DNA from: Candidatus Electronema aureum
GTDB taxonomy: Bacteria > Desulfobacterota > Desulfobulbia > Desulfobulbales > Desulfobulbaceae
Length of the DNA: 32,000 nucleotides
NCBI GenBank assembly: GCA_004284765.1
Contig: NQJD01000001.1
Coordinates: forward strand, 150,001 to 182,000
Reading direction: 5' to 3'
The notes under the pieces were generated by a model, which worked only from the letters and a program-made list of their open reading frames with translations, was not told where the DNA came from and did no database searches. The position numbers and the translations under genes were made by a program. Positions 175 through 22,825 of the stretch are shown here, in pieces (positions within the stretch are counted from its first letter, which is position 1; each line of letters starts with the position of its first letter).

Positions 175-2217
175 CTATTTGTCCGGCGGCAGGACTTCTG
201 GTAGCGTAATCACCACCCAAGCCCCTTCGCTTTCTTTTCCGTCCATCGTCACGGTGCAGTTCATCTCGGTAAGCATCTTTTTGACGATGGTCAGACCCAG
301 CCCGGTGCCGTTGATTCGGGTGGTGAAAAAGGGCGTGAAGAGCTGTTTGCGTACCTGCGGGGAGATGCCGCAACCGTTGTCCTGAAAACGAAGTTGAATG
401 CAATGCGGCTTACTGCGGGCTAACGAAATAATAATAACCGGGCTGATCTGTTTTTTCAGCGCATTGACCGAGTTCGTCAGCAGATTAAGCAGCACCTGAT
501 GCAGGGCGCGCTCATCAGCCAAACAATGCAGCGCACCTTCAGTCACTAACTCCAGTCGAATGCCTTTGTGCCGCAGGTCTTGCTCGTGCAGCCGTTTGAA
601 TTTTTGGACAAAGGCGGTCAGATCAAGCGGCGCGGCCTGCTGGTTTTCCATCAGATTAAAATTTTTCAAAGCAGAAAGCAGATACTCCATCCGGTTGATC
701 TCGCCCATTGAACGGTCAAGAAATTCGCGAATTTTCTCCCGACTCAGGGTGTCCATCTGCCGTCGCAGCACACTGAGAGCCATTTTCAGCGAATTGAGCG
801 GATTGGCTAACTCGTGCCGAACTCCCGAAAAAACAAAGCCAACATTTTCCATCAAATTAGCCGCAGCCGCGATGCACTCTAACCGTTTTTTCTCGGTTTG
901 ATCGCGACGAATGACACAAAAGCTGTTCACTTGGCCGTGATCGTCCTTTGTCGGCACTGTTACCACCGATTCATCGTACAGCGAGCCGTCCTTGTGGCGA
1001 CTGCGTAGCTCGCCGTGCCACTGGCCTTTTTGGGCCGCGCTGTCGAGAATCTGCGGCCAGTCTGGTTGCTCTTCGCTGCCGATGATCAGTTCGCTCAGGC
1101 TGTGTCCGGCTAACTCATCAGGCCGCCAGCCCGTGACTGACTGACTGGCAGGGTTGGCATACTGGATCAGACCAGTGCGGTCGGTGATCAGCACACAGTC
1201 GGCAAATTCCCGAATCGCTGCGGCTAACCGTTGCCGTTCCTCCGATTCTTGGCCGCGCTGGAGAGCCGTGCCAATAACATCAGCGGAAATCATCATCGCC
1301 CGTACTAACGAGGCCTCCCAAGAGCGTTTAGCCAAACTACAATCAAAGCCAAGACAACCGCGCACAGTTTTTGCCACATAAACTGGTAGAATCAGACAAG
1401 TACGAATGTGGTGCTTCTCCATTTCTTCCAGCACCGAGGCTGGCAAACCACTGTCCACGCCAATCAACGGCTTGCCAGTTTTCAGCGCGACAGCTGGCTG
1501 TCGCCAAGCGGACAGCAAATCAACACTGGAGCAATCGGGTGGACAGTCCGGTCTTGACCACGAGTAATCCTGCTGTGCCTCCACGCCCTCGGCAAAAATG
1601 CGGAGATAGACATGCTCACAATTGACCGTGCCGCCGAGATAGCTGAGGACTTCGTTGATCACATCTTGCCAGCGTGGTGCTTGAAGAAAGGTTTTGGCTA
1701 CATAATTGACCGCACAGAGGATTTGATCGCGTTGCAGCAAATTGCGCCGCACCTGCTCTTGCATGATCAGCGATTCCTTCAGTCGCTCGTTCGTCAGAGC
1801 TAAATCGCGGGCTTGCTGCGCTAATTTCTCATTGGCTGATTTGCGCTCTAAGACATTCCGCACCCGGACACAAAGTCGCTCCCGGCTGATCGGCTTGCGG
1901 AGAAAATCTGCGGCACCTGCGCCGAAGCTGCGGAATTCGCTCTCGTCCTGTTCTGCTCCGGTGAGAAAAATCACCGGAATTCCCAAGGTGTCGGCATCGG
2001 CTTTGAGCTTTTTGCACACATCAAAACCGGAGATGTCGGGCAGATTGATGTCTAAAAGGATTAAGTCAGGATGCGCTGTTCTCGCCAAACTGAGGCCAGC
2101 TCTGCCGTCTGCGGCCTTGAGTACCTGATATTTTTCCTGTTCGAGGACATAATGCAGCAGGCCCAGCACAGCAGGCTCGTCGTCAACCGCAAGGATGCGG
2201 GCAGCTTGGTTGTTCAT
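175..2217 (-). CDS. Hybrid sensor histidine kinase (REC - coiled coil - GAF-like - PAS - HisKA - HATPase_c)
   Basis: 680-aa ORF with ATG at 2217. N-terminal receiver motifs ILAVDDE, LILLDINLPDISG, FLRKP. H-box SGVRHELANPLNSL. ATPase N/G boxes LLNLLTNSVNA, DNGCGI, GTGLGLTIVK. Confidence 0.9.
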   Translation of the reverse strand: MNNQAARILAVDDEPAVLGLLHYVLEQEKYQVLKAADGRAGLSLARTAHPDLILLDINLPDISGFDVCKKLKADADTLGIPVIFLTGAEQDESEFRSFGAGAADFLRKPISRERLCVRVRNVLERKSANEKLAQQARDLALTNERLKESLIMQEQVRRNLLQRDQILCAVNYVAKTFLQAPRWQDVINEVLSYLGGTVNCEHVYLRIFAEGVEAQQDYSWSRPDCPPDCSSVDLLSAWRQPAVALKTGKPLIGVDSGLPASVLEEMEKHHIRTCLILPVYVAKTVRGCLGFDCSLAKRSWEASLVRAMMISADVIGTALQRGQESEERQRLAAAIREFADCVLITDRTGLIQYANPASQSVTGWRPDELAGHSLSELIIGSEEQPDWPQILDSAAQKGQWHGELRSRHKDGSLYDESVVTVPTKDDHGQVNSFCVIRRDQTEKKRLECIAAAANLMENVGFVFSGVRHELANPLNSLKMALSVLRRQMDTLSREKIREFLDRSMGEINRMEYLLSALKNFNLMENQQAAPLDLTAFVQKFKRLHEQDLRHKGIRLELVTEGALHCLADERALHQVLLNLLTNSVNALKKQISPVIIISLARSKPHCIQLRFQDNGCGISPQVRKQLFTPFFTTRINGTGLGLTIVKKMLTEMNCTVTMDGKESEGAWVVITLPEVLPPDK

Positions 2218-2407
2218 CGCGTTTTTCCGAAAAGGGCGGAGCAGTTTTCCCGCATCATTAGAGTCGGGAGGGACAGCTGGAATTTGTTGCCGCCGCTGTC
2301 AGATTTCTGTTTATTTCAGACAGAGTTGCTGCTACATTGAACCGCAAGGCCGCTTTCCGTGCGCCGCGCGACGGCGACTTTTTCCCGCAGCAAAGGAGAT
2401 AGCGCAC

Positions 2408-3232
2408 ATGCAGACCGCAGACCAAACAGAAACCAGTATAACCGCCTTGACAGGCAAAGACAATCTTCCGCCCCGGCCTGCTCGTAAACAGGTGCTGATT
2501 GTTGATGACGATCAGTCCTTGCTGGCCAGCATTCGCGCTGGGTTAGAGCAGCATCCCGGCTTCCGAGTGCTGACTGCGGCGAGTGGCAGCGAAGCCTTGG
2601 GCATCATCGACAGCAACAGTCTTGATCTGGCCGTGCTTGACCTCAGTATGCCGGACATGGACGGGCTTCAGTTGCTTGCCGCCCTGAGTGAATCTTTTCC
2701 CGAAATTCCCAGCATTGTTATGACCGGTTTCAGTTCACCGCTGATGAAGCAGCAGCTGAAACAGGCAGGCGCGCTCAAAGTGCTGGAAAAACCCCTCGAT
2801 ATTGAAACGTTAGAGCGGGAAATCAGCCGGGTAATCAAGGGCGACGACGGATGCTGCTGCCACTTACCGTTAGAAATCTTCCTCCAGTTAGCCGCGATGG
2901 AACATAAAACCATTCATCTCAAAGTCTTCCGTCCTGACGGATGCTGCGGCAGCTTCTTTTTCCGCGAAGGTCTGCTGATTGACGCAGAACAGGGTAACTT
3001 GTCCGGTGACAACGCGGTCTTGGCTATGCTTGAATGGCAGGACTTCACCTTAGGACTGAAAGAATACAGTCCGCCTTTTCCTGAACCCAGAGTCAACTCC
3101 GCTTTAGCTTATTTGCTGCTCAGAACCAGTTGCCGCTTGGATCAGTACAGCAACAGTGCCTGCTTAGACCAGGCGAAAGGGGAACTGCTCCGCCTCCAGC
3201 AGGAAAATAGCGTAGGCATTGATTGCCCATGA
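2408..3232 (+). CDS. Response regulator, REC + PATAN/DUF4388-type domain
   Basis: ATG at 2408 follows AAAGGAGA (2392-2399). REC motifs LIVDDD, VLDLSMPDMDG, MTGF, EKP. The C-terminal stretch LPLEIFLQLAAMEHKTIHLKVF..GSFFFREGLLIDAE..AVLAMLEW fits the DUF4388/PATAN pattern. The longer track ORF start (2195) overlaps the divergent kinase gene and is not believed. Confidence 0.8.
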   Translation: MQTADQTETSITALTGKDNLPPRPARKQVLIVDDDQSLLASIRAGLEQHPGFRVLTAASGSEALGIIDSNSLDLAVLDLSMPDMDGLQLLAALSESFPEIPSIVMTGFSSPLMKQQLKQAGALKVLEKPLDIETLEREISRVIKGDDGCCCHLPLEIFLQLAAMEHKTIHLKVFRPDGCCGSFFFREGLLIDAEQGNLSGDNAVLAMLEWQDFTLGLKEYSPPFPEPRVNSALAYLLLRTSCRLDQYSNSACLDQAKGELLRLQQENSVGIDCP

Positions 3233-4392
3233 AGGTGCTAATCGTTGATGACGAGCCGGAGCTGCTCTTGAGCATTAAATCCGGCTTTGAACACAACGAA
3301 CGGTTTCAAATAGTGACTGCGGAGAACGGTAGGGATGCCCTTGACCTCCTTGATCGGGGCAGGTTTGATCTGGTGGTGACAGACTTGCGGATGCCGATTA
3401 TGGACGGCATTGAGCTGCTCTCGGTGATGAGCGAATCCTTTCCTGAGGTGCCGCATATTGTCATGACCGCCTTCAGTACGCCACTGATAGACAAGCAGCT
3501 AAAAAAAGCTGGCACGCTTAATATTCTCGAAAAACCTTTTGACATCGAAGCATTAGAGCAGGCTATCAATAAAGCCTTAGATGTCCACGAGGAACAAAGC
3601 CGCAGTCTTTTTGGTCTTGCCCTCAGCAGCTTTCTCCAGATGGTGGCAATGGAGGAAAAAACTGTTCACATCAAGGTGTTTCATCCCTCTGGTAAAAACG
3701 GTAGCCTGTTTTTTCGGGAAGGCGAGTTGATCGACGCGGAGGTTGATCATCTGACCGGCGATGAGGCGGCTTTGGAAATGCTGGCGTGGGAGGACACGAG
3801 GGTGAGCATGAAGGAATTTCCTGCACCCTCACCCGGCACTCGGATGCAGTCTGAGCTACTGCCGCTGTTGTTCGCAGCAGCCAAGCGTGAAGACGAAGAC
3901 GGCGGCAATCACGAGGAGTTCGATAATCCTTTAGAGACGGCGAGACAAGAATTTACCCGGCTCAAGGAAGAACATGATCAACCAACGGCTCCACACAACA
4001 CTTTGACAGCAAAAGGAGAAACTATGGGTATCAAGGAATTGCTCAAAAAAATGGCAGATGAGATGGACGGTGTGTTGGCGATTCAGGTGACTGGCATGGA
4101 TGGTATCACCTTGGCTCTGCATAATCCCACTGGCGCAGATGTTGAGGCGTTTTCGGCCAAGTTTGCGATGGTGATGAAATTGGTGGAAAAATCAGTTGAT
4201 TCGCTCAAGGGCTTGGGTGAGCTGGAGGAAAATTTGGTTCAGACCAAGAACGCTTGGGTACTGACTCGCTTTATCACCCCGCAGCATTACATCGGCATTG
4301 CGGTCAGCCGTGAAGGTACGCTCGGCAACGTGCGCTTAGTCGGTCAACGTTACATTGAGCATCTGCGCAAACAGCTGGTCAAACCAGAGTAA
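3229..4392 (+). CDS. Response regulator, REC + PATAN/DUF4388 + C-terminal Roadblock/LC7 domain
   Basis: ATG at 3229 overlaps the upstream stop (ATGA, 3229-3232). It is a paralog of the upstream gene (VLIVDDEPELLLS, VVTDLRMPIMDG, MTAF, EKP; SSFLQMVAMEEKTVHIKVF..GSLFFREGELIDAE). The last ~120 aa (MDGVLAIQVTGMDGITLAL...NAWVLTRFI..HYIGIAVSREGTLGNVRL) fit the Roadblock/LC7 (MglB-like) pattern. Confidence 0.8.
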   Translation: MKVLIVDDEPELLLSIKSGFEHNERFQIVTAENGRDALDLLDRGRFDLVVTDLRMPIMDGIELLSVMSESFPEVPHIVMTAFSTPLIDKQLKKAGTLNILEKPFDIEALEQAINKALDVHEEQSRSLFGLALSSFLQMVAMEEKTVHIKVFHPSGKNGSLFFREGELIDAEVDHLTGDEAALEMLAWEDTRVSMKEFPAPSPGTRMQSELLPLLFAAAKREDEDGGNHEEFDNPLETARQEFTRLKEEHDQPTAPHNTLTAKGETMGIKELLKKMADEMDGVLAIQVTGMDGITLALHNPTGADVEAFSAKFAMVMKLVEKSVDSLKGLGELEENLVQTKNAWVLTRFITPQHYIGIAVSREGTLGNVRLVGQRYIEHLRKQLVKPE

Positions 4393-4426
4393 TTTCCATT
4401 CAATCCTTTTATTACAAGGAGAGCGC

Positions 4427-4900
4427 ATGGCAGCTGAAGAAGAAAGTGATAAAAAACTCATGCGGCTGATGAGCCTGATGATTGCGGGCATGGCCAAAGG
4501 ACTGTATGAGATGTTCGGTGAAGCGGCTTTTGCAGTGATGAGCGAAACCGGTAAAAGCATTCTAGAAATCTTGGAAAAGGAGATGAACCTCAAGGTTGAC
4601 GGGGAAGAGCCGAGTGAGGTGCTGAATGCTATCGGCCGCATCTTTGCTGATGAAATGGGCTTTGTCGATTCCTTTGCGGTTATCCGAGAGGGAAACCGAT
4701 TGACCGTGACGGTACACGGCTGTCAGGGGTGGGACATGACTCAAGCCGTCCTCAAGACCGGCGTGGAAGTCCCCTTCACCTGCCCGATCATGAATGTTTG
4801 TCAGGCCGCCCTGATCCGCATGGGCAGTCCAGCCCGAAAAACCATTTCGCCGATCCCAGAAACCCACGGTTCGACTATTGTTTTCACGCTGATTGAATAA
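4427..4900 (+). CDS. Small soluble protein, V4R-like (putative small-molecule-binding) domain
   Basis: ATG at 4427 follows AAGGAGAG (4417-4424). The 157-aa product has a helical N-terminal half followed by LTVTVHGCQGW..VPFTCPIMNVCQAAL..GSTIVFTLIE. This resembles the Cys-containing beta-rich V4R / COG1719 'hydrocarbon-binding' pattern. The assignment rests on pattern only. Confidence 0.45.
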   Translation: MAAEEESDKKLMRLMSLMIAGMAKGLYEMFGEAAFAVMSETGKSILEILEKEMNLKVDGEEPSEVLNAIGRIFADEMGFVDSFAVIREGNRLTVTVHGCQGWDMTQAVLKTGVEVPFTCPIMNVCQAALIRMGSPARKTISPIPETHGSTIVFTLIE

Positions 4901-4906
4901 GGCGGT

Positions 4907-4946
4907 GCGGCGAAATTGCAACTGAATTTTTTGCGAATTTCGCCGC
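4907..4946 (+). promoter_or_regulatory. Strong intra-operon stem-loop (11-bp perfect stem) without a U-tract
   Basis: GCGGCGAAATT (4907-4917) pairs perfectly with AATTTCGCCGC (4936-4946). It sits 7 nt after the stop of the V4R-like gene, in the 152-nt gap before the next gene. No T-run follows it. Confidence 0.5.
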
Positions 4947-5052
4947 GCACTTTCTTCACATCCTGCTTTTCCCTGCCGTTTTTTTCTGCTACAGTACAAT
5001 ACAAGTTTGCGTATCGCAGGTGGCATCGTGTTTTTCACGCAAGGAATAACCT

Positions 5053-5649
5053 ATGGATGTGCAGAAAAAACTGTCCCGGCTGGCCGAGATTGACGGTTTT
5101 CTCGGCACGGCTCTCTTTTCTGCCGAGGGCCGTTTGCTGGCCAAATGCGAACCCTTTGATTTTGACCTCAAATTGGTCGCCTCTCTTGCCAACGGCGTGC
5201 TGGTCAATGCGCAAAAGGCCTCTCTTGACATGGGCTTTGGTCGCTGCCAGTTCACTTATGTTCATACGGAAAAAGCACTGATTTTGATACGCTGCCTCAA
5301 TGAAGGCAGAAATCCACTGCGCACTGAGCCGGGCAAGTGCCACATTCATTTAGTGCTGTTAGTTGACAACCCGGACAGCTTCGGCATTGCCAAGTTAGAA
5401 ATCAACAAAGTGATCGAGTCGTTGGCTGAGGATTTCCGAATGCCGGAAACAACCCTCCAATTGCCAAAGCGAAAACCGCTCCAGCCCGCACAAGCAGCTC
5501 GGCAGCAAGAACAACAGCGGCAGCCGCCTGCGGCAGTGCAGCGGCATCATCTGCGCGATGTAGCTGAGTCGTTGGATAATGAAAAAATTGACGCGATGTT
5601 TGATGGCCTGTTGATGCAGCCCGCGAGAATGGCAGAAGAGTACACATGA
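5053..5649 (+). CDS. Roadblock/LC7 domain protein with Q/P/A-rich C-terminal tail
   Basis: ATG at 5053 follows AAGGAA. LSRLAEIDGFLGTALFSAEGRLLA...KALILIRCL...HIHLVLLVDNPDSFGIAKLEINKVIESL fits the Roadblock/LC7 pattern. The tail PQAARQQEQQRQPPAAVQ is low complexity. Confidence 0.75.
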   Translation: MDVQKKLSRLAEIDGFLGTALFSAEGRLLAKCEPFDFDLKLVASLANGVLVNAQKASLDMGFGRCQFTYVHTEKALILIRCLNEGRNPLRTEPGKCHIHLVLLVDNPDSFGIAKLEINKVIESLAEDFRMPETTLQLPKRKPLQPAQAARQQEQQRQPPAAVQRHHLRDVAESLDNEKIDAMFDGLLMQPARMAEEYT

Positions 5650-6014
5650 CCAAACAGAACTGCTGGGAGGTGAAACAGTGCGGACGGCAGCCGGGCGGCA
5701 GCAATGTGAAGCGGGACGGTGTTTGTCCAGCCTCTACGCTCACCGCAGTCAATGGCACCAACGGTGGTCGCAACGGCGGGCGGGCTTGCTGGGCCTTGAC
5801 CGGTACGATGTCTGGTCCGGCGGAAAAAGTGCAGGGTATCTTTGCTCGTGACATCACCACGTGCCATTCTTGTCGCTTTTACGAGCAGGTGATGTGCGAG
5901 GAATTAGACAATTTTGAAGGCACGGTGCAAATCGTGCGCAAGCTGCGGGACCGCATTTCCCAAGCCGCGAGTTTTCCCTTCATCCAATCTGGAACAAACA
6001 ATGGAGCAAAGTAA
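5646..6014 (+). CDS. Small Cys/Trp-rich protein resembling the 'two-CW' domain family
   Basis: ATG at 5646 overlaps the upstream stop (ATGA). The 122-aa product has Cys at 6, 12, 27, 48, 73, 76 and 84. It carries two CW dipeptides (NCWEVKQCGRQPGG and GGRACWALTGT) and CHSCRFY. No TM segment or signal peptide is visible. Confidence 0.6.
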   Translation: MTKQNCWEVKQCGRQPGGSNVKRDGVCPASTLTAVNGTNGGRNGGRACWALTGTMSGPAEKVQGIFARDITTCHSCRFYEQVMCEELDNFEGTVQIVRKLRDRISQAASFPFIQSGTNNGAK

Positions 6015-6381
6015 GAAATGTGTGCTGGCTGTTGACGACACGCCCAGCTATCTCATGTTGCTGAACATGATTTTGCAGAAAAATTATGCAGTCAAGGCCG
6101 CGCCCAAAGGCGAGATTGCCCTGAAAATTGTGCGCCAAAATCCAGCGGCGGTAGATTTAATTCTTTTAGACATCATGATGGAAGGTATGGACGGTTTCGC
6201 GGTCTGCCAAGAGCTGAAGGCTGATCCGGCTACTGCTCGTATTCCAGTGATTTTCATCTCTGGCAAAGAAGATGAGGCCGATCGAGAGAAAGGGTTGGCC
6301 TTGGGCGCAGTGGATTTTATCGTCAAACCCTTTGCTGCCGACACTGTGCTAGCCACCGTGGCCCGGCATCTGCCGACCTGA
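6001..6381 (+). CDS. Single-domain CheY-like response regulator
   Basis: ATG at 6001 overlaps the upstream gene by 14 nt. Motifs VLAVDDTP, LILLDIMMEGMDG, IFISGK, FIVKPF. The track ORF start at 5914 lies inside the upstream gene. Confidence 0.85.
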   Translation: MEQSKKCVLAVDDTPSYLMLLNMILQKNYAVKAAPKGEIALKIVRQNPAAVDLILLDIMMEGMDGFAVCQELKADPATARIPVIFISGKEDEADREKGLALGAVDFIVKPFAADTVLATVARHLPT

Positions 6382-6387
6382 GGAGCT

Positions 6388-7875
6388 TCAGACCGCTGTT
6401 TCGCTTCCAAGACACACCGCAAAAGTCGTTCCTTCTCCTTCCTTACTTTGCACGGTGATGGTTCCGCCGTGCTTTTCAACGATATTTTTAGTGATCGACA
6501 GTCCCAAGCCGGTGCCACGATTTTTGTCCGTATAAAAGGGGATAAAAATTTGCGTCATCTTCTCTTCAGACATACCACATCCGGTGTCGGTGATTTCTAA
6601 CATCGCGCCGCCCTCAGGCAGCGGACGAGTACGAATGGTCAAGGTGCCGCCTTTCTCCGACATAGCATGAACAGCATTGAAGACAATGTTCAGTAAAACC
6701 TGATATATTTGCTCGCCGTCCATCAGAATTTCCGACAAAGCGGAATCCAGTTCCAGCATTGGTTTGATCTGTTTGGCCGTGAATTCCGCCTCCATAAACA
6801 CGGTCATTCGTTCAACCAAGCTGTTGAGCGAGCCTGAAGATAGGGTTAAATCCTTGGGTCGAGCAAAATCGAGGAATTCTCGGACAATACCGTCTAACCG
6901 GGTGGTTTCTTGAACGATGATCGCCGCTAAATGCTCATTACCTGGCGCAACTTTGCTGATTCGTTTGGCAATGATTTCGGCTGTTGAGCGAACGATACCG
7001 AGCGGATTTTTGATCTCGTGCGAAACTGAGGCAATCATCTTGCCAAGTGCTGCTAACCGTTTGGATTCATGCAGCTGCTTCTCTAATTCCCGCCGCTCCT
7101 GTGCCCTTGCCTCCATGATCCGATCAGCCCGAATAACGATGGCACTAAGGACGGCGAACAAAATGCTCATCACGACTAACGAGACAAGGATAATTTTGAA
7201 CTGGAGCGAGATGAGAGCCTCCATGTCTGCGGACAAATCCTGCGTCACTGCCACTACGCCCATGATTTCCCCCTGCCCGCTGCCTCTGTCTTGACGAAAG
7301 GGGACGTACGTTTGCAGCAGACAAGATACTGGTGGTCTGCCGGGCAAGAGTAGGTTGAGCATAGAGCCGCTGGACATCAGCACAGTTGAACTTTCACCCA
7401 GCAGAGCTTTCTGGTACTCGATACCGCCCGCATTTTTTTTTCCCACCAGTGCGTTTTCGGTCGCATAAGAGATAATATTCTCGCGAGAATCAAAAATAGT
7501 CACTGATTTGATGCTCATGCCCCGGGTGATGTCAGTGATAATCAGGTCTAACTGTTCGAATTGCACCGGGTCAGAGAGAGCAATACGTCCGTAGCGGACA
7601 AAGGTAGGCAGAACAAAGAGATAGAAAACTTGTCGATTGAGGCTTTCAGCAAACATGCGGGAATAAATTTCGCTTCGCTCCAAGATAGTTTTGCGGGTGT
7701 TGCGGGAAAAACTCCACGTCAAAATCAGCGAGGCGAGCAAAATCACTGTCAGCGAGGTAAAGGAAAAATATTTAACTAAGGCAAAGGGCTGTTGCCCACC
7801 GATGTCTTCCTGCTCTGCGGAGCTGCTATCTTGCGAGGATTTTTTGGTGAAATAATCAGATATATGAAATTTCAT
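6388..7875 (-). CDS. Membrane sensor histidine kinase (two TM segments flanking an extracytoplasmic sensor domain, HisKA, HATPase_c)
   Basis: H-box SVSHEIKNPLGIV. N/G boxes LLNIVFNAVHA, DTGCGM, GTGLGLSITK. Hydrophobic segments FSFTSLTVILLASLILTW and IILVSLVVMSILFAVLSAIVI. The start could be ATG 7875 or TTG 7884. It converges on the CheY gene with a 6-nt gap. Confidence 0.88.
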   Translation of the reverse strand: MKFHISDYFTKKSSQDSSSAEQEDIGGQQPFALVKYFSFTSLTVILLASLILTWSFSRNTRKTILERSEIYSRMFAESLNRQVFYLFVLPTFVRYGRIALSDPVQFEQLDLIITDITRGMSIKSVTIFDSRENIISYATENALVGKKNAGGIEYQKALLGESSTVLMSSGSMLNLLLPGRPPVSCLLQTYVPFRQDRGSGQGEIMGVVAVTQDLSADMEALISLQFKIILVSLVVMSILFAVLSAIVIRADRIMEARAQERRELEKQLHESKRLAALGKMIASVSHEIKNPLGIVRSTAEIIAKRISKVAPGNEHLAAIIVQETTRLDGIVREFLDFARPKDLTLSSGSLNSLVERMTVFMEAEFTAKQIKPMLELDSALSEILMDGEQIYQVLLNIVFNAVHAMSEKGGTLTIRTRPLPEGGAMLEITDTGCGMSEEKMTQIFIPFYTDKNRGTGLGLSITKNIVEKHGGTITVQSKEGEGTTFAVCLGSETAV

Positions 7876-8130
7876 TGCCAACAAAAGAGGTCAAGGGAGC
7901 GATGGCTGCGCACAAACTGTAATTTGACTCATTGTACCGTATTTTGCAGAAAGCACGCAGTCCTTTTACCGTACAAGAGCAAAAACTATACCTCTTGCAT
8001 AATTGCTACCGCCTTTTGTACAGGCAGAAAACATATAACTCCGCTTGTCCAGCAGCCCCGGTTTCTCACCGTGCTGGAGCTACGCCCAAATTATTGTTGA
8101 GGAAATGTCTTCCTTCAGTCGTCGGTTGAT

Positions 8131-8318: not shown

Positions 8319-9254
8319 CTACCTTACTGGCGGCATCGCTTCAAGTCCAACAGCGAAAAGCTTGCGGTAGCTTGCATAGCATCTTCTTGCCCGTCGATAT
8401 TGCTCAAGGTTTGCTATCCGAGCCTTTTCCAGATCAAGCGGTGGAATCCCTATGCCAAAACTATAAATTGGGCCTACATTACCGTTTGGTGTCTCTATAT
8501 AGGTACCATCAGGTTGTTTAGTCGGTGTGCTGCGCTCCTCAACAGAACGAACAACGATTCGGACATGGCCTAAGCCAAGCCGAGGCCCGATAATGTGGCT
8601 ATGCAGATTGCGGTAGTTCGAGGTTTCTTTTTTGTAAGCCTCATTGTCTATAGCTCGAAGTAATTCCATGAACTCTGTTCCTTCCGGCCAAATCGAAATC
8701 AACGTGGACAGACGGTTCTCTTTCTTTTGTCTGCTCATATGATTTGGCTTTTTTATCTCATCAGGCGTTTTAGGATCGCCTTTAAGGTAGTCCTGATACC
8801 CCTTTTCAACCATTAATCGTACCTGATGCATCGTATTGGTGACGACAAAGGTAAGTCTATCGCGACTCGAACTCGGCTGAAACAGACAGTAGAATATAAG
8901 TGTCTCAAGAAATGCTCTCCGCAATTCCCACGCTTTTGCTTCGTCTGTACTGAAGAACTGAAGAACTTTGTTCCAAGCGTACCAGTTGCGCAATGATTCA
9001 TGCCATTGGTTTAAATCATTTGTTAGCTCTCTTAACTCACTTTTGACCATGTCATTAATGATACTCCGACGATTAACGTCGAGATGTATATCATCAAACT
9101 GCCAGTGGCGAGCATCAATCGCTTCCTCGAAATCATAAGGAAGATAGCCTTCTGATGGCTCCAAATCGCCTCTCTTGAGTTCTGTTAGGTAGGCATCAAA
9201 GGAGATACGAAGAAACTTTTGGTAATCTTCTGCGATTTTTATCTTTTTATCCAT
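8319..9254 (-). CDS. Hypothetical protein with HEPN-like RNxxxH motif (Abi-like candidate)
   Basis: 311-aa ORF with ATG at 9254, visibly AT-richer than its neighbours. It is mostly helical/charged. SNYRNLHSH (R215..H220, nt 8595-8612) matches the Rx4-6H HEPN signature with the typical polar residue after R. I recognise no other family. Confidence 0.4.
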   Translation of the reverse strand: MDKKIKIAEDYQKFLRISFDAYLTELKRGDLEPSEGYLPYDFEEAIDARHWQFDDIHLDVNRRSIINDMVKSELRELTNDLNQWHESLRNWYAWNKVLQFFSTDEAKAWELRRAFLETLIFYCLFQPSSSRDRLTFVVTNTMHQVRLMVEKGYQDYLKGDPKTPDEIKKPNHMSRQKKENRLSTLISIWPEGTEFMELLRAIDNEAYKKETSNYRNLHSHIIGPRLGLGHVRIVVRSVEERSTPTKQPDGTYIETPNGNVGPIYSFGIGIPPLDLEKARIANLEQYRRARRCYASYRKLFAVGLEAMPPVR

Positions 9255-11192: not shown

Positions 11193-12527
11193 TTATTGCC
11201 TAGGCGCATCCAAATAGAGATTCAACCGGTTCTTTTTTAGATAATCGAGCTTCCATCCGAGCTTGGTATCATGAGGCTTTGGATGAATTATAAAGCCGCT
11301 CAACTGAGTGCTGCGCTCGACATTTTCTGTCTTGAGATACGCTTGCTTCCATCGCTCTTTTCCTTCGCAGAGCCAGGTAGAATATTTTGTATTCGATGTG
11401 CCGATAGAAATCGTGGTGATGAAAAAAAGTGCTATACAGACCAGCAACACCCTTTCCGGCATTTTCTCCCTTGTGACGGTAAAGAGGTAGAGCGCAAAAA
11501 AGCCAGGGGTCATATAAGGGATATACCGGGAAGCTGCCGCTGCTCCCAACCCAAGACATGCCCGGCCTATCGCAAGATTGAGAGAAAAGATCAGGGTGAA
11601 GATGATCAACACGATGATGATCTGGTTTCGAGGTACTTCTTTATCATCTACGCTTGTTGCAATATCTTTCCCAGATCGGAAAATGACATACAGCATGTAG
11701 AAAATAATCGGGGCGGCGATGAAATACAAGACAATATTCGACATCCTCATCCCGATAAACGTTGCAAACGCGATGAGAATGAATTTTACATAAATAAACG
11801 AATGCGGATGTGGAAAAACAAATCCTTCTAATGCACTGTTGAATGTATAGTTGAGAAAGAATGAAGCAATTGAGGCAACCGAGATGAAGAAAAAGACGAC
11901 CGCAAGCCTTTTTCTTCTCGAATCATTATTCTTCACAGCAAGAGCAAACTCAGACAGAAAGAGCAACGGCGTGACGCAGCCGATAAAAATACCGAAGCCG
12001 GTGTACAGCGTCATGAAGTTGATTGCTGCGCAGAGCGTATAGCGCAGCGGGATATTCTGTATCATCCAGCAGAGAGCAAAGAGCGTAATCAGCAACAATG
12101 GCATGGCACCATGCGAGACATTCGGTGTATTTGCAAATAGCTCGAACTGCAATGGGGAAAGATAGAGCAGCGGAATGACGAGATCAAATGCTGTGATGTT
12201 GCCAGCAAGCCGCCATTTGAGCGCGAGGGCAGTCAATGCGGCAAGACAGATGACTGTGCCGATCATGAAGCATTCAATTCTGGTGTTCCAGCCGGAAAGA
12301 TCAGCGGTCAGCTTTGTCAGGAAAAAGCCGACTCCTTGACGATGCGGCCCGTGCTGCCAAGAAAAAAGCTCCCACGGCCCTTTCTGCTCAAACAGCCCGC
12401 CCATGAAATCCCATTGATCCAAGAAGAGCATATTGACGCTGTATTTGTCGATCAGGATAAACCATCTTGCAAGAATAAAGATAGAAAGCGCAACCGCTAC
12501 ACTATTGATCAGTAAATATTTTCTCAT
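11193..12527 (-). CDS. Polytopic inner-membrane protein (about 11-12 TM; GT-C-like glycosyltransferase/polymerase candidate)
   Basis: AT-rich, very hydrophobic ORF. ATG at 12527 (MRKYLL) is preferred over TTG at 12539. An early loop reads FLDQWDF...HGPHRQG, and a ~70-aa soluble C-terminus follows the TM segments. The family is not recognised with confidence. Confidence 0.5.
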   Translation of the reverse strand: MRKYLLINSVAVALSIFILARWFILIDKYSVNMLFLDQWDFMGGLFEQKGPWELFSWQHGPHRQGVGFFLTKLTADLSGWNTRIECFMIGTVICLAALTALALKWRLAGNITAFDLVIPLLYLSPLQFELFANTPNVSHGAMPLLLITLFALCWMIQNIPLRYTLCAAINFMTLYTGFGIFIGCVTPLLFLSEFALAVKNNDSRRKRLAVVFFFISVASIASFFLNYTFNSALEGFVFPHPHSFIYVKFILIAFATFIGMRMSNIVLYFIAAPIIFYMLYVIFRSGKDIATSVDDKEVPRNQIIIVLIIFTLIFSLNLAIGRACLGLGAAAASRYIPYMTPGFFALYLFTVTREKMPERVLLVCIALFFITTISIGTSNTKYSTWLCEGKERWKQAYLKTENVERSTQLSGFIIHPKPHDTKLGWKLDYLKKNRLNLYLDAPRQ

Positions 12528-13027
12528 GACTGAACGCAATCAACTGTGTAGATTAATCTCAATCTCAACGCTTCTTTCGAAAATATTCGTCATGTATTTT
12601 CCTGACCAGCTCCTGCGGTGACGCTCCTTCTTCATTGGAGATGCCCCGGGCGGTGTATAATAGATGATAGATGGTTGAAAGTATCTTTAGGCAGGAAAAA
12701 AGAGCAACTATACCTAATGTGCAACTCTTAAAGAAGATTCCCGATCCATTGGATAGCTCCTGAATAGCGGTAGGCAAACCCTATTCACCAGGAGCACGCG
12801 ATCTATTTAAAAAAACGGGATGAAGTCAGAAGGAAGGCTTTATGTATATCGAAAAATGGAAAAATTTCCATAGAAGCCAACATTGTGTTGAAAAAAGAAC
12901 AGAGCTGCCGTCCTGTGGAAATATGTTTTGAGATTTATTAACCACTGCAACGATTGCATTTTATTTCATTGATCGTTTACAGTTAACCATTACCGAAATA
13001 TTATCAGCAGATTTTCCCTATATCGCT

Positions 13028-15397
13028 TCACACTTTCTCAATCAGCACATTCCACTGCCCGCCGCTCTTCTCCTGCCGTAAAATGCGGTGGCCTTCCAGT
13101 CGCACTGAGCCGGGCACGTTTTCAATCGGCTCGCCATCATCAAGGATAATTTCCAAAGTCTCGCCGGGATTTATGCAAGAAAGTAGCACCTTAGTACGGG
13201 CAAAGTTGAGTGGGCATTTGATTCCGCTCAAATCTTTAAATTTATCTGCCTTGATCTTGTCCGCAGATGTTACTGATTGCTGTATCGTACCTGCTACTGG
13301 ATTGCCGCTTTCGCCCGGAAAACGCATGGTGCTATCCATCTTCTCATACAGCTCGGTCATCTCGCGGCCTAATGCGATAATTTTGTTAGGATGACTGAGC
13401 AACTCATCCGTTTTACCACTGAAGGCGAGATCAACAATAAAACGGTGTTCTGCGCTGACCAAACCGGTGTCGAGGAAATGCCGAGCAAAAAGGCTGAAGG
13501 TGTCCGCCTCGTTTTTGGGTTCCTCACCTCGCGTCACTAATAGCATCCGGGCGGAGCGAAAGAGAATATCGTGCAGCACGTCAGCCGGCACAGCTTGGCC
13601 ATTCGTCAGGGATTTTAACTGCTTTTTGATTTCCCGGTCATCCACGTCAATCATATCGTACATGCCCGCTGAACACTCGGCCCGGCCCATGTCCTTGACC
13701 GAAAAAAGTTGCTCTGCGCCGTGGTCGAAGTAGTAATTCTTGTCCTCTTCAAACGACGGAATACTGTTGTATGTGGCTGCACAGAGATCAGCTACCATCG
13801 CCTTGCCGCTGCTGTTCCACCAGCTACTGAAATTATATGCCGGATCGGCGACTTTAAAATTTGCGTACATTTTCAGCACCTCGACTACAAAACGCGGCAG
13901 GTCAAAGGAATGTACCCAGCCAACCACCTCGCCCAGTCGAAGCTGGCCTTGGCTGATACCGCCGTTGCCCAGCACGTTGTAGGTCGGTAGAGCGCGACCC
14001 TGCACGTGCCGCACTTTGCCGTGAAAAGCTATGTCGCCGATCCAATGGTTGGCGCAGGAATTGGGGCAGCCGCTGATGCGGATTTGCACGTCGTCAGGCA
14101 GGGGGAAATCCGCACGGTCGAGGGCGCGGAACACTGCCTGCGCCGCTGGCCGAGGCCGGTTGATGCCGACTTGGCAAGTTTGTGCGCCAGTGCAGGGAAC
14201 TAAGCTCCCGTAGATCACCGGGTTATCACTCAGGGTCGTGCAGGCAGCAATGACGTGGAGCAGGTTGGGCAAAAAACGCTCTGGGATGTTGCGGAGATAG
14301 AGGTTCTGATCCGTGCCGCAGCGCAGGGTATTTTCGCCAAAAAGTTGAAGAAAATTTGTCAGTCGTTGGCAATCTTCTGGCGACAAATCACCCAGCAGTA
14401 ACGGCAACCGGACGGCGTACAGCCCCTCTTGCTTCTGTTTGGTGACATGGCGTTCTTTCCACATCGCAAAACCGGGCGCAGGCTCCACCAGCGGCTCTAA
14501 GGCAATGGCGCAGTTGAGGTTGGCCGCGTTGTCAATCGACGTAATTTGCAAATTGGGGCTGCCTTGGGCCAGCACTTGAGCAAATTCCTCCTGATATGCG
14601 GCGCAGAAGGCGGTCTCGCCCATCTCGTCATGAATGAGAAATTTGATCCGATTACGGTGCTTGTTCTTGCGGTTGCCGTGGGCATGAAAGAGATTCTTGA
14701 TCGCCCGAACAGCATGATACACCTGCGGCTCTGGTAAAAATTCTTGCAGCAGGATGCCGACCTTCGGTCTTGCACCTAATCCGCCGCCAGCATAAAGCTG
14801 ATAGCCGCGTTCGCCCGCAGCATTCAGGCAAGCGATGAAGCCAATGTCCTGCACCAGCGCAAAGGCGGCATCGTCGCTGCGAGAGGTGAAGGCAGTTTTG
14901 ATCTTGCGCGGCAGCTCCCAGCTGTCTGGCTCGGCAACCATGCGAGTAGTCAGAGCCACGGCGCAGGGTTGTACGTCAAAGATATCCTGCGGGCTGATAC
15001 CGGAATCCGGGTTGGCAACAATGTTGCGGATGGTATTACCGCCGCCGCCCAAGCAGGACAGGCCAGCCTCGCGCAGCCGCAGCAGCACGAGAACGAGATT
15101 TTCCTCTTGAACACCGTGCAGCTGGATTTCCGCCCTTGTGGTCACATGCACTCGGCTATCGCCGTATTGCCGGGATAACTCACCCGCTGCGGCTAACTGC
15201 TGCGGGCTGAGGATGCCGCCTGCACAGCGGATGCGGAACATGTAGGTGGTATAATTTCGTTCCAGATATACCCCCATTTTTACCCGTTTGGCAGTGAAAG
15301 CCGTCTCGTGCAGTCTTCCGGCTTGGAACTCGGCCAAATCCTGCTCAAAGCGGCGGATGTCCGCCTCCAACGACACGGAAATCTCGTAATGCAGCAT
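13028..15397 (-). CDS. Sirohaem-[4Fe-4S] sulfite/nitrite reductase haemoprotein fused to an unassigned helical domain and a C-terminal TusA/SirA-like domain
   Basis: ATG at 15397 follows GAGGGA (the track start at 15430 is TTG). Cluster/sirohaem cysteines CTGAQTC (Cx5C) and CPNSC (Cx3C). C-terminal LSGIKCPLNFARTKV..GETLEIILDD..VPGSV resembles TusA (CPxP-type active Cys at nt 13214-13216). Confidence 0.85.
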   Translation of the reverse strand: MLHYEISVSLEADIRRFEQDLAEFQAGRLHETAFTAKRVKMGVYLERNYTTYMFRIRCAGGILSPQQLAAAGELSRQYGDSRVHVTTRAEIQLHGVQEENLVLVLLRLREAGLSCLGGGGNTIRNIVANPDSGISPQDIFDVQPCAVALTTRMVAEPDSWELPRKIKTAFTSRSDDAAFALVQDIGFIACLNAAGERGYQLYAGGGLGARPKVGILLQEFLPEPQVYHAVRAIKNLFHAHGNRKNKHRNRIKFLIHDEMGETAFCAAYQEEFAQVLAQGSPNLQITSIDNAANLNCAIALEPLVEPAPGFAMWKERHVTKQKQEGLYAVRLPLLLGDLSPEDCQRLTNFLQLFGENTLRCGTDQNLYLRNIPERFLPNLLHVIAACTTLSDNPVIYGSLVPCTGAQTCQVGINRPRPAAQAVFRALDRADFPLPDDVQIRISGCPNSCANHWIGDIAFHGKVRHVQGRALPTYNVLGNGGISQGQLRLGEVVGWVHSFDLPRFVVEVLKMYANFKVADPAYNFSSWWNSSGKAMVADLCAATYNSIPSFEEDKNYYFDHGAEQLFSVKDMGRAECSAGMYDMIDVDDREIKKQLKSLTNGQAVPADVLHDILFRSARMLLVTRGEEPKNEADTFSLFARHFLDTGLVSAEHRFIVDLAFSGKTDELLSHPNKIIALGREMTELYEKMDSTMRFPGESGNPVAGTIQQSVTSADKIKADKFKDLSGIKCPLNFARTKVLLSCINPGETLEIILDDGEPIENVPGSVRLEGHRILRQEKSGGQWNVLIEKV

Positions 15398-15438
15398 TTT
15401 TTCCCTCTTCAACGTAGCTTCGAGTGACAACGGATTTT

Positions 15439-16991: not shown

Positions 16992-18317
16992 TTATTTTAT
17001 GACTTCCCAGCTACTGATAATAGTGACGATGTCTTTCTTCTCTTGCTCGGAAAGATAATGAGGATCTCCAGTGCCTTCCGCCATGATACTAACGGTTTTC
17101 TCCCATTCTTCTTGATTTTTATTCGCCTGATGCAATCGCTCTGTGTCGTGGCAGCGTCCGCATTTGCTATTGATCAAGGGATGATCAGTATGAGATGATT
17201 TTGGTGGCGTATAAATCTCATGGCCCTGTTTATCCCGTTCCTCGATCGGAAGACTGAGAAATTCGATAATTTGCTGTTTCTCTTGCTCGGAAAGATATCC
17301 GGGATTGCCAGTTATTTCAATCATGTTGTTGATAGTTTCAGTCCAAACTTCCTTTGTCTTTTTTGCAATAAGTACCTGATCTAACTTATGACAGCCTGCA
17401 CTACATTTGCGAGCGACTAAGCTCCGCACTCCGGTAACTATGGATGGGGGAAGTGTGCTTCCAGTTTCTATATTCCATAATTTTTCCATATCGTTAGCGA
17501 GAAATCCAGCAATAGTATTTTTTTCCTCCTCGGAAAGATACTTGGGGTCGCCGGTGAGAGTGATCATTCTCTCGACCGTCTCGCGCCAACGCTGCTCGTT
17601 CTTCTTTGCTGCGGATATCTTATTCAATTTATGGCACATTGTTGTACATTTGACCAAAATCAGCTTTTTTTTCTGCTGTATTTCATCATGCAATCGCTTT
17701 TCATTCAAGTAGGCAGCAATGACTCCGGCTTCAGCACTACTGATGTCGGAGGAATCAAAGGCGGCCATTTTGCTGACAGTTGGAGTCCATTCAGTTACGG
17801 TAGCGGCGTAGATGCGATCAAGCGTATGACATTTGCTGCATTTTTTACTCATGATGACATGACCAGATTCCATGCTCACCTCTGGTGTAGAGATGGTCTT
17901 TTCCCCGCTGTGCTGCTTGTTGTAATAGTAAGCAGCCATCGCAGTAAGACCAAAAGAGAGGCCAAAAATTGCAGTTCCCAGCAGAATCAACTTGGTGCTG
18001 ATCAGGGCTTTCTGTCGGGCGACTACCACTTTAATCATGATCAGCGGCACCAACAACAAAGCAAGAATCATGACTGGTGCAGGCATATCTCCCTGAAAAC
18101 TGCCAGTTCTAAACACCATGTAGGCGAGCATCCCTGCAAACAGTACCAAAAAAAGATAGCCGAGAAAACGCTGTACGACAGCTCTGTTATTTTTTTCGCT
18201 GTTTTCCTGTGGAGTGCTGTTCATTTCCAGCATGATCAGCACGGTGACACCAGCAATCACGATTAATAAAATCGCCAGCATGAACGAAAATTGATAATAC
18301 AATTGATTATTATACAT
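16992..18317 (-). CDS. Membrane-anchored tetrahaem c-type cytochrome built from four repeated modules
   Basis: Four N-terminal hydrophobic helices are followed by four haem motifs: CSKCH (C160), CTTMCH (C224), CSAGCH (C305), CGRCH (C386). Each is followed by ..W..TV..M....G.P.YLSE.EK..I..F. The repeat is visible in the DNA (TCTTGCTCGGAAAGATA at ~17040 and ~17280). Confidence 0.8.
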   Translation of the reverse strand: MYNNQLYYQFSFMLAILLIVIAGVTVLIMLEMNSTPQENSEKNNRAVVQRFLGYLFLVLFAGMLAYMVFRTGSFQGDMPAPVMILALLLVPLIMIKVVVARQKALISTKLILLGTAIFGLSFGLTAMAAYYYNKQHSGEKTISTPEVSMESGHVIMSKKCSKCHTLDRIYAATVTEWTPTVSKMAAFDSSDISSAEAGVIAAYLNEKRLHDEIQQKKKLILVKCTTMCHKLNKISAAKKNEQRWRETVERMITLTGDPKYLSEEEKNTIAGFLANDMEKLWNIETGSTLPPSIVTGVRSLVARKCSAGCHKLDQVLIAKKTKEVWTETINNMIEITGNPGYLSEQEKQQIIEFLSLPIEERDKQGHEIYTPPKSSHTDHPLINSKCGRCHDTERLHQANKNQEEWEKTVSIMAEGTGDPHYLSEQEKKDIVTIISSWEVIK

Positions 18318-18360
18318 ATTTCTCTTGCCTGATTTACGCGAGCCTTGAAGCTACCCTCAG

Positions 18361-18397
18361 TAAAAAAATCCACTGCCGGTCTCCTCCAGCCCGGCAG
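18361..18397 (-). terminator. Rho-independent terminator after the upstream cytochrome gene
   Basis: CTGCCGG (18373-18379) pairs with CCGGCAG (18391-18397). On the minus strand the stem is followed by TGGATTTTTTTA (A-run 18362-18368 on plus). It lies between the two cytochrome genes. Confidence 0.55.
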
Positions 18398-18514
18398 ACG
18401 CAGATTTTTTTCCGGCTCCGTCCTGCATCAGAAGGAGTTTCTGTTTAAAGTTTATCCTGTTTCCTTCTGTAGTTCAACCTCCGGTCTGGTTTTCTCTCTT
18501 TGAGCGGGGAAAAT

Positions 18515-20110: not shown

Positions 20111-20283
20111 GGGTATTTCTGGTCGTGCAACAGACCGCTTCACAGAGGCAGTGCGTGATATTTGATCTTTTTTATTATTCACTTTTTCCTGATGCAGCAC
20201 AAGGAATTACTGCCACTAAAAGGAAACAGGAGCCAATCCCCGCATTTCCGGCAACCAGTTCCTTTTTTCAGCGCGTTTCTCTC

Positions 20284-22390: not shown

Positions 22391-22825
22391 TCAATGAAAT
22401 AAAATACAATCGTTGTAGTGATTAATAAATCTCCAAACAGATGCAGTTAAGTTTTCAATGCTTCTCGAAAACGACAATGTCTTCCTGACTAATGCCGACA
22501 CTCTCTGCCTGAATGTTAAATTAATCCTTTCGATATGACTTGTTTTTCCGCTTCCTTTACTGACAACGCTGTGTCTTTCCGCAGGAAATACTTTTCCGTA
22601 AGAGGCCAAGCCGTCTGTGAAAAATATTCCGTTCTTTTTGCAGTCTTCAGAAAGTGACTTCCACAGGGCAGCAGCTCCGGCATCGTCTCTTTTTCCGACA
22701 TGAGCACCAACAATGAGCTTTGTTCTTCTTTCAGAAGCAAGCCATATCCATATGTCATTCTCTTTGCTTCCGACAAAAGTCCACATCTCGTCGGCTTCTA
22801 TAAAAATTTTTCCAGCTTTAGACAT
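22391..22825 (-). CDS. insB: IS1-family InsB' (DDE catalytic part, expressed as an InsAB' fusion by -1 frameshift)
   Basis: EADEMWTFVGSK.NDIWIW, FFTDGLASY, SGKTSHIERINLTFRQRVSALVRKTLSFS. It is in the -1 frame relative to insA and overlaps it by 28 nt. Confidence 0.85.
   Translation of the reverse strand: MSKAGKIFIEADEMWTFVGSKENDIWIWLASERRTKLIVGAHVGKRDDAGAAALWKSLSEDCKKNGIFFTDGLASYGKVFPAERHSVVSKGSGKTSHIERINLTFRQRVSALVRKTLSFSRSIENLTASVWRFINHYNDCILFH

Follow-up and report, generated by a model that had tools for sequence, protein, structure and literature searches.

What can a cluster of histidine kinases, receivers and Roadblock proteins control when no GTPase is encoded with it? The question is raised by an eight-gene locus of the freshwater cable bacterium Candidatus Electronema aureum (contig NQJD01000001.1, positions 150,001 to 182,000; this whole 32-kb stretch is called the window here, and coordinates are counted from its first letter). 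We label the genes along the locus HK1, G1 to G6, and HK2: six small genes on the plus strand lie between two kinase genes on the minus strand. An earlier note, made from the letters alone, had described them as a GTPase-less Roadblock operon, and all eight open reading frames (ORFs) were found where it had placed them. The cluster is real, conserved and built of known parts, its components intact, canonical and under purifying selection. What the window holds is a reduced version of a more widespread cassette, and the full cassette is the more interesting of the two. For the version in the window we tentatively propose, with a probability of about 0.42, that a two-kinase, three-receiver phosphorelay controls an adaptor complex acting by protein contacts on machinery encoded elsewhere.

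One genome per species (Genome Taxonomy Database, GTDB) was scanned with an alignment of G3, a 157-amino-acid (aa) protein encoded at 4427-4900 on the plus strand and assigned below to the V4R/Bet3 fold. The scan yielded 36 related loci, in which ORFs were called and then labelled by domain queries derived from the window together with iterative searches (single loci are cited by number, e.g., L033). They span Electronema, Electrothrix, other Desulfobulbaceae, Desulfocapsaceae, Desulfobacterales, Aminicenantes, Anaerolineales, Coatesbacteria, WOR-3 and KSB1. A separate look-up recovered the cassette in the cultured gammaproteobacterium Thiorhodovibrio frisius as well, and its function is therefore open to experiment. 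Synteny extends well beyond this genome: to six Electronema genomes for the cluster and to 36 loci of several phyla for its core. Wherever the upstream sequence suffices, a G2-type Roadblock protein or domain is encoded immediately upstream of the V4R gene. T. frisius, Anaerolineales, Coatesbacteria and KSB1 have it as a separate protein, several Thermodesulfobacteriota as a fusion to PATAN, and Desulfobulbales and others as a fusion to REC-PATAN. On the 3' side of the V4R gene, 28 loci carry a highly conserved gene of ~430 aa (X; L009:11856-13148, L012:2223-3512, L045:10001-11287 and 25 further loci), followed in about 25 of the 28 by gene Y (~260 aa) and then in many by gene Z, a Roadblock paralogue of ~131 aa. 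The widespread core is Roadblock, V4R, amidoligase (X), amidotransferase (Y), Roadblock (Z).

The six Electronema loci, that of the window included, have none of X, Y and Z, and the absence falls exactly at the position of a 152-nucleotide (nt) gap between G3 and G4 (4901-5052). A tblastn search of the window for remnants of the amidoligase, amidotransferase and small Roadblock genes returned chance-level matches only. Electrothrix keeps X, Y and Z, followed by orthologues of G4 and G5, and its Z-G4 junction is an 8-nt overlap in L012 or a gap of 18 nt (L025) or 75 nt (L008). Because Z abuts or overlaps G4 in Electrothrix, G4 and G5 were part of the cassette operon before the deletion. The genus Electronema lost X, Y and Z; cable bacteria added G4 and G5, and Electronema added G6 and HK2. 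The possibility raised earlier, that the locus is a trimmed known module, is borne out with respect to the trimming. However, what went was an amidoligase, an amidotransferase and a third Roadblock protein, not a GTPase.

The two lost enzymes were identified by different routes. Y matches the GATase_6/GATase_4 and phage amidotransferase families and begins Met-Cys-Gly in all loci, Cys2 being the N-terminal nucleophile of class-II amidotransferases. Neither single-sequence nor profile searches matched X to anything in Pfam, NCBIfam, PHROGs or the PDB; homologues of X are named 'Amidoligase enzyme' in two sources. The top matches of its AlphaFold model (predicted local distance difference test, pLDDT, 89) all belong to the glutamine synthetase/YbdK/gamma-glutamylcysteine ligase/Dop superfamily, with low template modelling (TM) scores of 0.3-0.43 and probabilities of up to 1.00, suggesting that X is an amidoligase of the glutamine-synthetase/YbdK/Dop fold. 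Its motifs include KIGTELEF, TCGLHFH, LCRRRQHN and SNNDGxLATSDT. Some X proteins have a Walker-A-like motif around residue 280; its reading as a nucleoside triphosphatase (NTPase) site was considered and dropped, since the motif is not conserved in the family. The pairing of an amidoligase (PF12224) with a GATase (PF13522) is common in phages and was traced to Iyer et al. 2009 (PMC10580990); no description of an amidoligase-amidotransferase pair between Roadblock and V4R genes was found in the searchable literature.

The cassette varies in detail between lineages. In Candidatus Electrothrix laxa (L008:11839-12691), Y is split into ORFs of 123 and 149 aa by a frameshift or sequencing error, and Electrothrix gigas (L015) seemingly has no Y. 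In some Electrothrix an additional REC-PATAN-Roadblock paralogue separates the V4R gene from X (L009:10605-11813, L013:7946-9106), and L009 then has no Z. A beta-carbonic anhydrase gene directly follows the V4R gene in Coatesbacteria and WOR-3, a neighbour that may hint at a connection with CO2 or bicarbonate, and a hexapeptide-repeat protein takes that position in one KSB1 locus (L036:5372-5998, L038:2862-3500, L039:1810-2427). A sigma-54-dependent NtrC-type regulator, often accompanied by a histidine kinase, is a frequent neighbour in non-cable loci (L020, L022, L023, L026-L028, L030, L031 and L034; e.g., L022:6868-8268).

Upstream of G3 in the window lie two response regulators. G1 (2408-3232, plus strand) consists of a REC domain (90.7 bits) followed by PATAN (DUF4388), the latter at 21.9 bits and so under the cut-off of 25. 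G2 (3229-4392, plus strand) has REC, PATAN (37.5 bits) and a C-terminal Roadblock domain whose Robl_LC7 score of 18.2 bits is under the cut-off of 23. The two are tandem paralogues, 47% identical over REC and PATAN (E = 1e-75). At family level, Robl_LC7 matches 28 of 32 G2-type Roadblock domains, orthologues and paralogues together (best E = 1.2e-9). Both sub-threshold calls, PATAN in G1 and Roadblock in G2, hold because of this paralogy and these family-level matches. With the PATAN of G2 and the Robl_LC7 of G4 above their cut-offs, the earlier PATAN and Roadblock assignments survived the hidden Markov model (HMM) check.

The kind of Roadblock domain was another matter. A profile built from 32 G2-type and small (Z-type) Roadblock domains found as its best match in the PDB the MglC protein of Myxococcus xanthus (7ct3; E = 1.1e-11), with profile positions 13-126 aligned to MglC 5-118, the full domain. 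Weaker matches were archaeal Roadblock proteins, Rv3364c and CvnB5 (E = 0.0017), whereas comparison with MglB structures was not significant (E = 0.7-1.7). The Roadblock domain of G2 is therefore MglC-like in sequence, not MglB-like. The MglB-type label that the earlier note gave to Roadblock proteins does not fit these two modules, since the G2-type profile finds MglC and G4 finds only an archaeal Roadblock protein. MglC is an adaptor bridging the response regulator RomR and MglB, not a GTPase-activating protein (GAP) (PMC10329633). PATAN, in turn, is a protein-interaction output domain that in Synechocystis binds the pilus extension ATPase PilB1 and the platform protein PilC (bioRxiv 10.1101/2021.06.11.447907). 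The G2 protein has an identical copy encoded on a 2.94-Mb chromosome (OW818638.1, assembly GCA_942492785.1).

For G3, the V4R call had no match in Pfam or NCBIfam HMM scans, nor in a PDB sequence search. Since the call lay beyond the reach of sequence, the structure was predicted and compared by fold. The AlphaFold model, made from 26 homologues (pLDDT 88; predicted TM score, pTM, 0.82), was matched by Foldseek in the PDB to Bet3/TRAPPC3 (mouse, yeast, fly and Thorarchaeota), to the V4R sensor domains of PoxR, MopR and DmpR, and to H-NOX. TM scores reached 0.62 at probability 1.00 (Bet3 1wc8, 0.61; Thorarchaeota TRAPPC3, 0.58-0.60; PoxR, 0.57-0.60), and the similarity to TRAPP/Bet3 is one of fold alone, at 7-17% identity. 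The model thus indicates a two-layer alpha/beta V4R/Bet3 ligand-binding fold. The folds recovered are exactly the set described as V4R-related (PMC10933270), and V4R has been proposed as the ancestor of Bet3 (PMC2253512, PMC10933270). A Zn site of Cys (or His/Glu) that ties the sheet to a helix is a mark of the V4R/Bet3 superfamily; in the alignment of the G3 family, Cys99 and Cys119 are invariant and Cys125 is near-invariant. With 95 clusters among 1.84 billion representatives, this is a small family. Public precomputed annotation gives G3 the family PF27323 'RdxA_C', a name whose origin was not found.

Downstream of the gap, G4 (5053-5649, plus strand) consists of a Roadblock domain, a low-complexity linker and a conserved C-terminal peptide. 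Its Robl_LC7 match of 28.5 bits is above the Pfam threshold. In the PDB it matched only the archaeal Roadblock protein 7f8m (E = 2.3e-4) and no MglB, and it showed no similarity to the true MglB encoded in L033. Orthologues among the related loci are confined to cable bacteria. Their linkers vary, being Q/P/A-rich in Electronema and charged in Electrothrix; the C-terminal peptide, LRDVAESLDNEKIDAMFDGLL, is strongly conserved. This end of the protein (window 5560-5649 and orthologues in L007-L025) follows the pattern L-x-D/E-V/I-x-E-S-L-D-N-E-x-I-D-x-x-F-D-x-L-L. Such conservation suggests that the peptide is likely a docking motif for some partner.

G5 (5646-6014, plus strand) is a stand-alone two-CW domain protein, labelled a hypothetical protein in public Candidatus Electronema aureum records. 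Its score for NCBIfam NF045718 (two_CW_domain) is 93.3 bits, where the curated cut-off is 35. Six cysteines are conserved (C6, C12, C27, C48, C73 and C76), both CW pairs are kept (C6-W7 and C48-W49), and this pattern suggests a metal or redox site. Its homologues all stand alone, at ~100-130 aa; those outside cable bacteria have a seventh conserved cysteine (GTLCG) where cable bacteria have GTMSGPAE. G5 lies beside G4 in Electronema and in those Electrothrix loci that reach that far. We had considered two-CW proteins as general companions of Roadblock proteins and rejected the idea: three non-cable two-CW neighbourhoods contain no Roadblock gene, and the pairing is therefore specific to cable bacteria. 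Outside cable bacteria, one locus holds a tandem pair of two-CW genes (L046:6001-6321 and 6323-6622), and another has a peroxiredoxin/thioredoxin-TPR gene whose stop is overlapped by the two-CW gene (L047:4964-6333).

The remaining genes supply phosphotransfer. HK1 (175-2217, minus strand), divergent from G1, is a soluble hybrid histidine kinase with Pfam matches to REC, PAS, HisKA and HATPase and a weak GAF-like region (20.7 bits against a cut-off of 22.4). Its H-box reads HELANP, and the divergent position is common to cable bacteria and to Desulfobulbaceae/Desulfocapsaceae loci. HK2 (6388-7875, minus strand; alternative TTG start at 7884) is a membrane histidine kinase convergent on G6; the public record gives its length as 495 aa. 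A loop of ~165 aa flanked by two hydrophobic segments precedes HisKA (H-box HEIKNP) and HATPase, both recognized by Pfam. G6 (6001-6381, plus strand) is a single-domain CheY-like receiver (REC, 93.7 bits). Orthologues of HK2 and G6 among the related loci occur in Electronema only. All four REC domains retain the DD, D, T(S) and K residues, and both kinases have an H-box with HATPase, so that kinases and receivers alike carry the canonical residues of two-component signalling. The earlier domain inventory therefore stands by Pfam/NCBIfam for most calls and by fold only for V4R, with GAF a weak match below its cut-off.

The junctions were largely as first read. ATGA overlaps join the G1 stop to the G2 start (3229-3232) and G4 to G5 (5646-5649), G5 and G6 overlap by 14 nt (6001-6014; ATG at 6001, TAA at 6012-6014), and a 6-nt spacer (6382-6387) separates the stops of G6 and the convergent HK2. 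However, G3 and G4 lie 152 nt apart, so the six genes are not all tightly packed, and a single six-gene operon is doubtful given the hairpin in that gap. This GC-rich hairpin (4905-4948, plus strand; ~17 pairs) begins four bases past the G3 stop, and RNAfold gave -42 kcal/mol for the 152-nt gap. Five of the six Electronema loci (the window, L006, L007, L014 and L018) have a hairpin at this position, with different sequences but the structure kept. Since structure is kept despite sequence change, a role in termination, attenuation or transcript stability can be argued. The hairpin is not a textbook terminator: a simple promoter/terminator scan, whose counts did not exceed those from shuffled sequence, did not call it, given its overlong loop and weak run of T. 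Two transcription units are probable here, or else a single attenuated one.

Taken together, the products of the locus comprise sensing and phosphotransfer parts and four kinds of module for protein interaction or ligand binding, and none of the six small proteins (G1 to G6) has a recognizable catalytic, DNA-binding or nucleotide-binding output domain. As there is no output enzyme, DNA-binding domain or NTPase, we take the locus to encode an adaptor complex under phosphorelay control. HK1 would sense via its cytoplasmic PAS and GAF-like regions and HK2 via its extracytoplasmic loop, and the two kinases together would phosphorylate the receivers of G1, G2 and G6. Phosphorylation would then alter how the PATAN domains and the G2 Roadblock domain engage their partners. 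The G2 Roadblock domain may pair with that of G4, which would take the place of the small Roadblock protein that was lost. Such a platform could bind both the V4R protein, with its putative site for a small ligand or zinc, and the two-CW protein, with its putative metal or redox site. Output would pass through the PATAN domains and the G4 C-terminal peptide to machinery encoded elsewhere. The likeliest target would be the filament's type IV pilus or gliding polarity machinery, possibly including an MglA-type GTPase, since one is encoded by cultured relatives in the Desulfobulbales. The Roadblock/V4R platform of the ancestral cassette would have been coupled to the amidoligase-amidotransferase pair, either regulating the pair or sensing its product.

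Several observations weigh against this proposal. The window contains no pilus, gliding or chemotaxis gene. The suggested link to motility draws on an analogy to the PatA-type regulators of cyanobacteria, whose domains come in the opposite order (PATAN then REC). Outside cable bacteria the usual neighbours of the cassette are the sigma-54 NtrC-type regulators, not motility genes. Since the ancestral partner was a ligase and not a motor, the Electronema proteins might instead keep a metabolic-regulatory role unrelated to motility. Finally, the hairpin suggests that G1-G3 and G4-G6 may be separately expressed.

Could the proteins nevertheless be classical regulators of a small GTPase that acts in trans? 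The Roadblock proteins, with or without the V4R protein in a TRAPP-like role, would then serve as GAP, guanine nucleotide exchange factor or adaptor of an MglA/SofG-like GTPase encoded elsewhere, tuned by the phosphorelay. Relatives lend this some substance: MglA-MglB pairs lie elsewhere in the genomes of Desulfobulbus propionicus (Despr_1662) and Desulfotalea psychrophila (DP2776), and Desulfococcus oleovorans has PATAN beside MglA (PMC4316618 supplement). More generally, PATAN genes have been reported near mglA/mglB (PMC4316618; bioRxiv 10.1101/2021.06.11.447907), MglC, the nearest solved relative of the G2 Roadblock domain, operates within the MglA polarity module, and the predicted fold of G3 equals that of the TRAPP subunit Bet3. 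In L033, from a deltaproteobacterial metagenome-assembled genome, the cassette lies between a PilT-like ATPase a few kilobases upstream and a directly following MglB-MglA pair (3621-4703, 11978-12397 and 12461-13081). The MglA-like protein there has GPGRGGKT, TVPGQ and NKAD motifs and scores 34.5 bits for Pfam Ras. However, L033 is the only one of the 36 loci with a GTPase, so the module is not routinely adjacent to mglA. Its true MglB is of a different Roadblock family, dissimilar to G4 and not linked by iterative search to the cassette Roadblock proteins. Neither Roadblock module of the window has a significant MglB match. The window itself bears out the earlier statement that no P-loop GTPase lies in or beside the cluster: none was found by Pfam among its other ORFs of at least 110 aa, motif and phmmer scans that took in every ORF from 60 aa upwards found no small GTPase (Walker A plus NKxD), and no ORF matches the Ras, Arf, Roc or EF-Tu families. 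What the cassette conserves as a partner is an ATP-dependent ligase rather than a GTPase. We therefore regard control of a GTPase in trans as unlikely, although it deserves serious consideration. Nor is the absence of a GTPase as unusual as had been assumed, since 328 of 749 prokaryotic MglB homologues are orphans, none of which had been studied by 2014 (PMC4316618).

The gap between G3 and G4 invites a different explanation, namely that the deletion joined two unrelated modules that form no common complex. HK1 and G1-G3 would be the remnant of the amidoligase cassette, and G4-G6 with HK2 a separate redox or metal two-component unit. The conserved hairpin within the gap is consistent with such a boundary, as are the restriction of G4 and G5 to cable bacteria and of G6 and HK2 to Electronema. 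The two-CW genes of three other taxa, unlinked to Roadblock and in one case translationally coupled to a peroxiredoxin-TPR gene, point the same way. However, the adjoining or overlapping Z and G4 genes of Electrothrix place G4 and G5 in the cassette operon before the deletion. Moreover, the presumed partner of the G2 Roadblock domain was lost in that deletion, and G4 encodes the sole other Roadblock nearby. On balance, two merely juxtaposed modules seem a rather doubtful account of the locus.

A more ambitious variant of the adaptor proposal, which we consider improbable, would make the two Roadblock proteins and the Bet3/V4R protein a bacterial counterpart of the eukaryotic platforms that join Roadblock/longin and Bet3 proteins (TRAPP, Ragulator). 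Its ancestral client would have been an ATP-dependent ligase of the glutamine-synthetase fold with an N-terminal-nucleophile amidotransferase, not a small GTPase, and the V4R protein would sense the product of the ligase, a small amide or a tagged protein. Cable bacteria would have rewired the platform, gaining the two-CW protein as a redox or metal sensor. In Electronema it would have lost the enzymes and come under two kinases, and would now turn redox or oxygen information into control of filament gliding.

That the regulators are a functionless leftover of the lost enzymes, heading for loss themselves, is very hard to reconcile with the sequence comparisons. The disappearance of X, Y and Z from all six Electronema genomes without remnants is what decay would leave behind. 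Yet all eight genes are intact, with ratios of nonsynonymous to synonymous substitution (dN/dS) of 0.02-0.10 relative to Electronema sp. PJ (HK1, 0.065; HK2, 0.023). Synonymous divergence (dS) was 1.1-1.6 in seven genes and 3.1 in HK2, near or at saturation; the direction, purifying selection on all eight genes, is unambiguous despite this. The same arrangement is retained in six Electronema species or strains, and the lineage gained the new genes G6 and HK2. Least credible of all is an anti-phage defence or conflict system, for although the PF12224-PF13522 pair is common in phages and Y matches a phage amidotransferase family, the enzyme pair is absent from the window, the chromosomal position amid housekeeping genes is stable, and the idea was rejected on the PADLOC results (generic receiver-domain matches only) and on those from PHROGs (no match for G3, G4, G5, X or Z).

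Elsewhere in the window we found housekeeping and redox genes, including purine and pyrimidine genes. Adjoining HK2 is a 311-aa ORF (8319-9254, minus strand) with no match in Pfam or NCBIfam, whose position is the same on L002, a metagenomic contig of Candidatus Electronema aureum from another assembly. At 13028-15430 and 16992-20200, both on the minus strand, are a sulfite/nitrite-reductase-like protein with C-terminal TusA and, further on, two multihaem c-type cytochrome genes. An IS1-family transposase fragment (22391-22825, minus strand) lies in the stretch of lowest GC content (0.39 at 22-23 kb).

The wider interest of the locus lies in its family. Orphan Roadblock proteins make up nearly half of prokaryotic MglB homologues, and here one such family acquires a conserved context across several phyla, one that points from GTPases toward an ATP-dependent ligase system. 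The constant partner of Bet3/V4R fold bears on the pre-eukaryotic origin of platforms that combine Roadblock/longin and Bet3-type proteins. For cable bacteria, the locus is a candidate sensory module that differs between freshwater Electronema and marine Electrothrix and could feed gliding and the seeking of oxygen and sulfide.

No characterized system with this architecture was found in the searchable literature, in agreement with the earlier note; partial resemblances to several systems are nevertheless evident. The Streptomyces conservon (CvnA-CvnD) also combines a sensor kinase and a Roadblock protein in one cluster, but by Pfam and NCBIfam no DUF742 protein or CvnD GTPase is present here, and the kinases are canonical HisKA proteins with cognate receivers. 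The X and Y genes of relatives form a pair like the phage PF12224-PF13522 pair (X by fold and name, Y by GATase_6 and Cys2), except that X has no Pfam match and the window has no such pair. PatA-type regulators (PixG, PixE, LsiR and PatA) unite PATAN and REC in one protein, as G1 and G2 do. However, REC is N-terminal to PATAN here, G2 has an extra Roadblock domain, the partners are classical histidine kinases and not Che-like ones, and the window has no che or pil genes. In the TRAPP core and the Asgard TRAPPC3-Roadblock pairing, a Bet3/V4R-fold protein is likewise encoded alongside Roadblock-superfamily proteins; the bacterial cassette differs in having no Rab-like GTPase substrate and in its coupling to a ligase and an amidotransferase. 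The remaining comparison is with RomR/MglC/MglB of M. xanthus. There, receiver and Roadblock are not fused with PATAN between them as in G2, and there is no counterpart of the V4R or two-CW protein; conversely, G4 is not MglB by sequence, and no MglA, RomX or RomY gene lies near it. Nevertheless, G4, like MglB, is a Roadblock protein with a C-terminal extension, and both systems couple a response regulator to a Roadblock adaptor, which in turn recruits another Roadblock protein, the arrangement that we propose here for G2 and G4.

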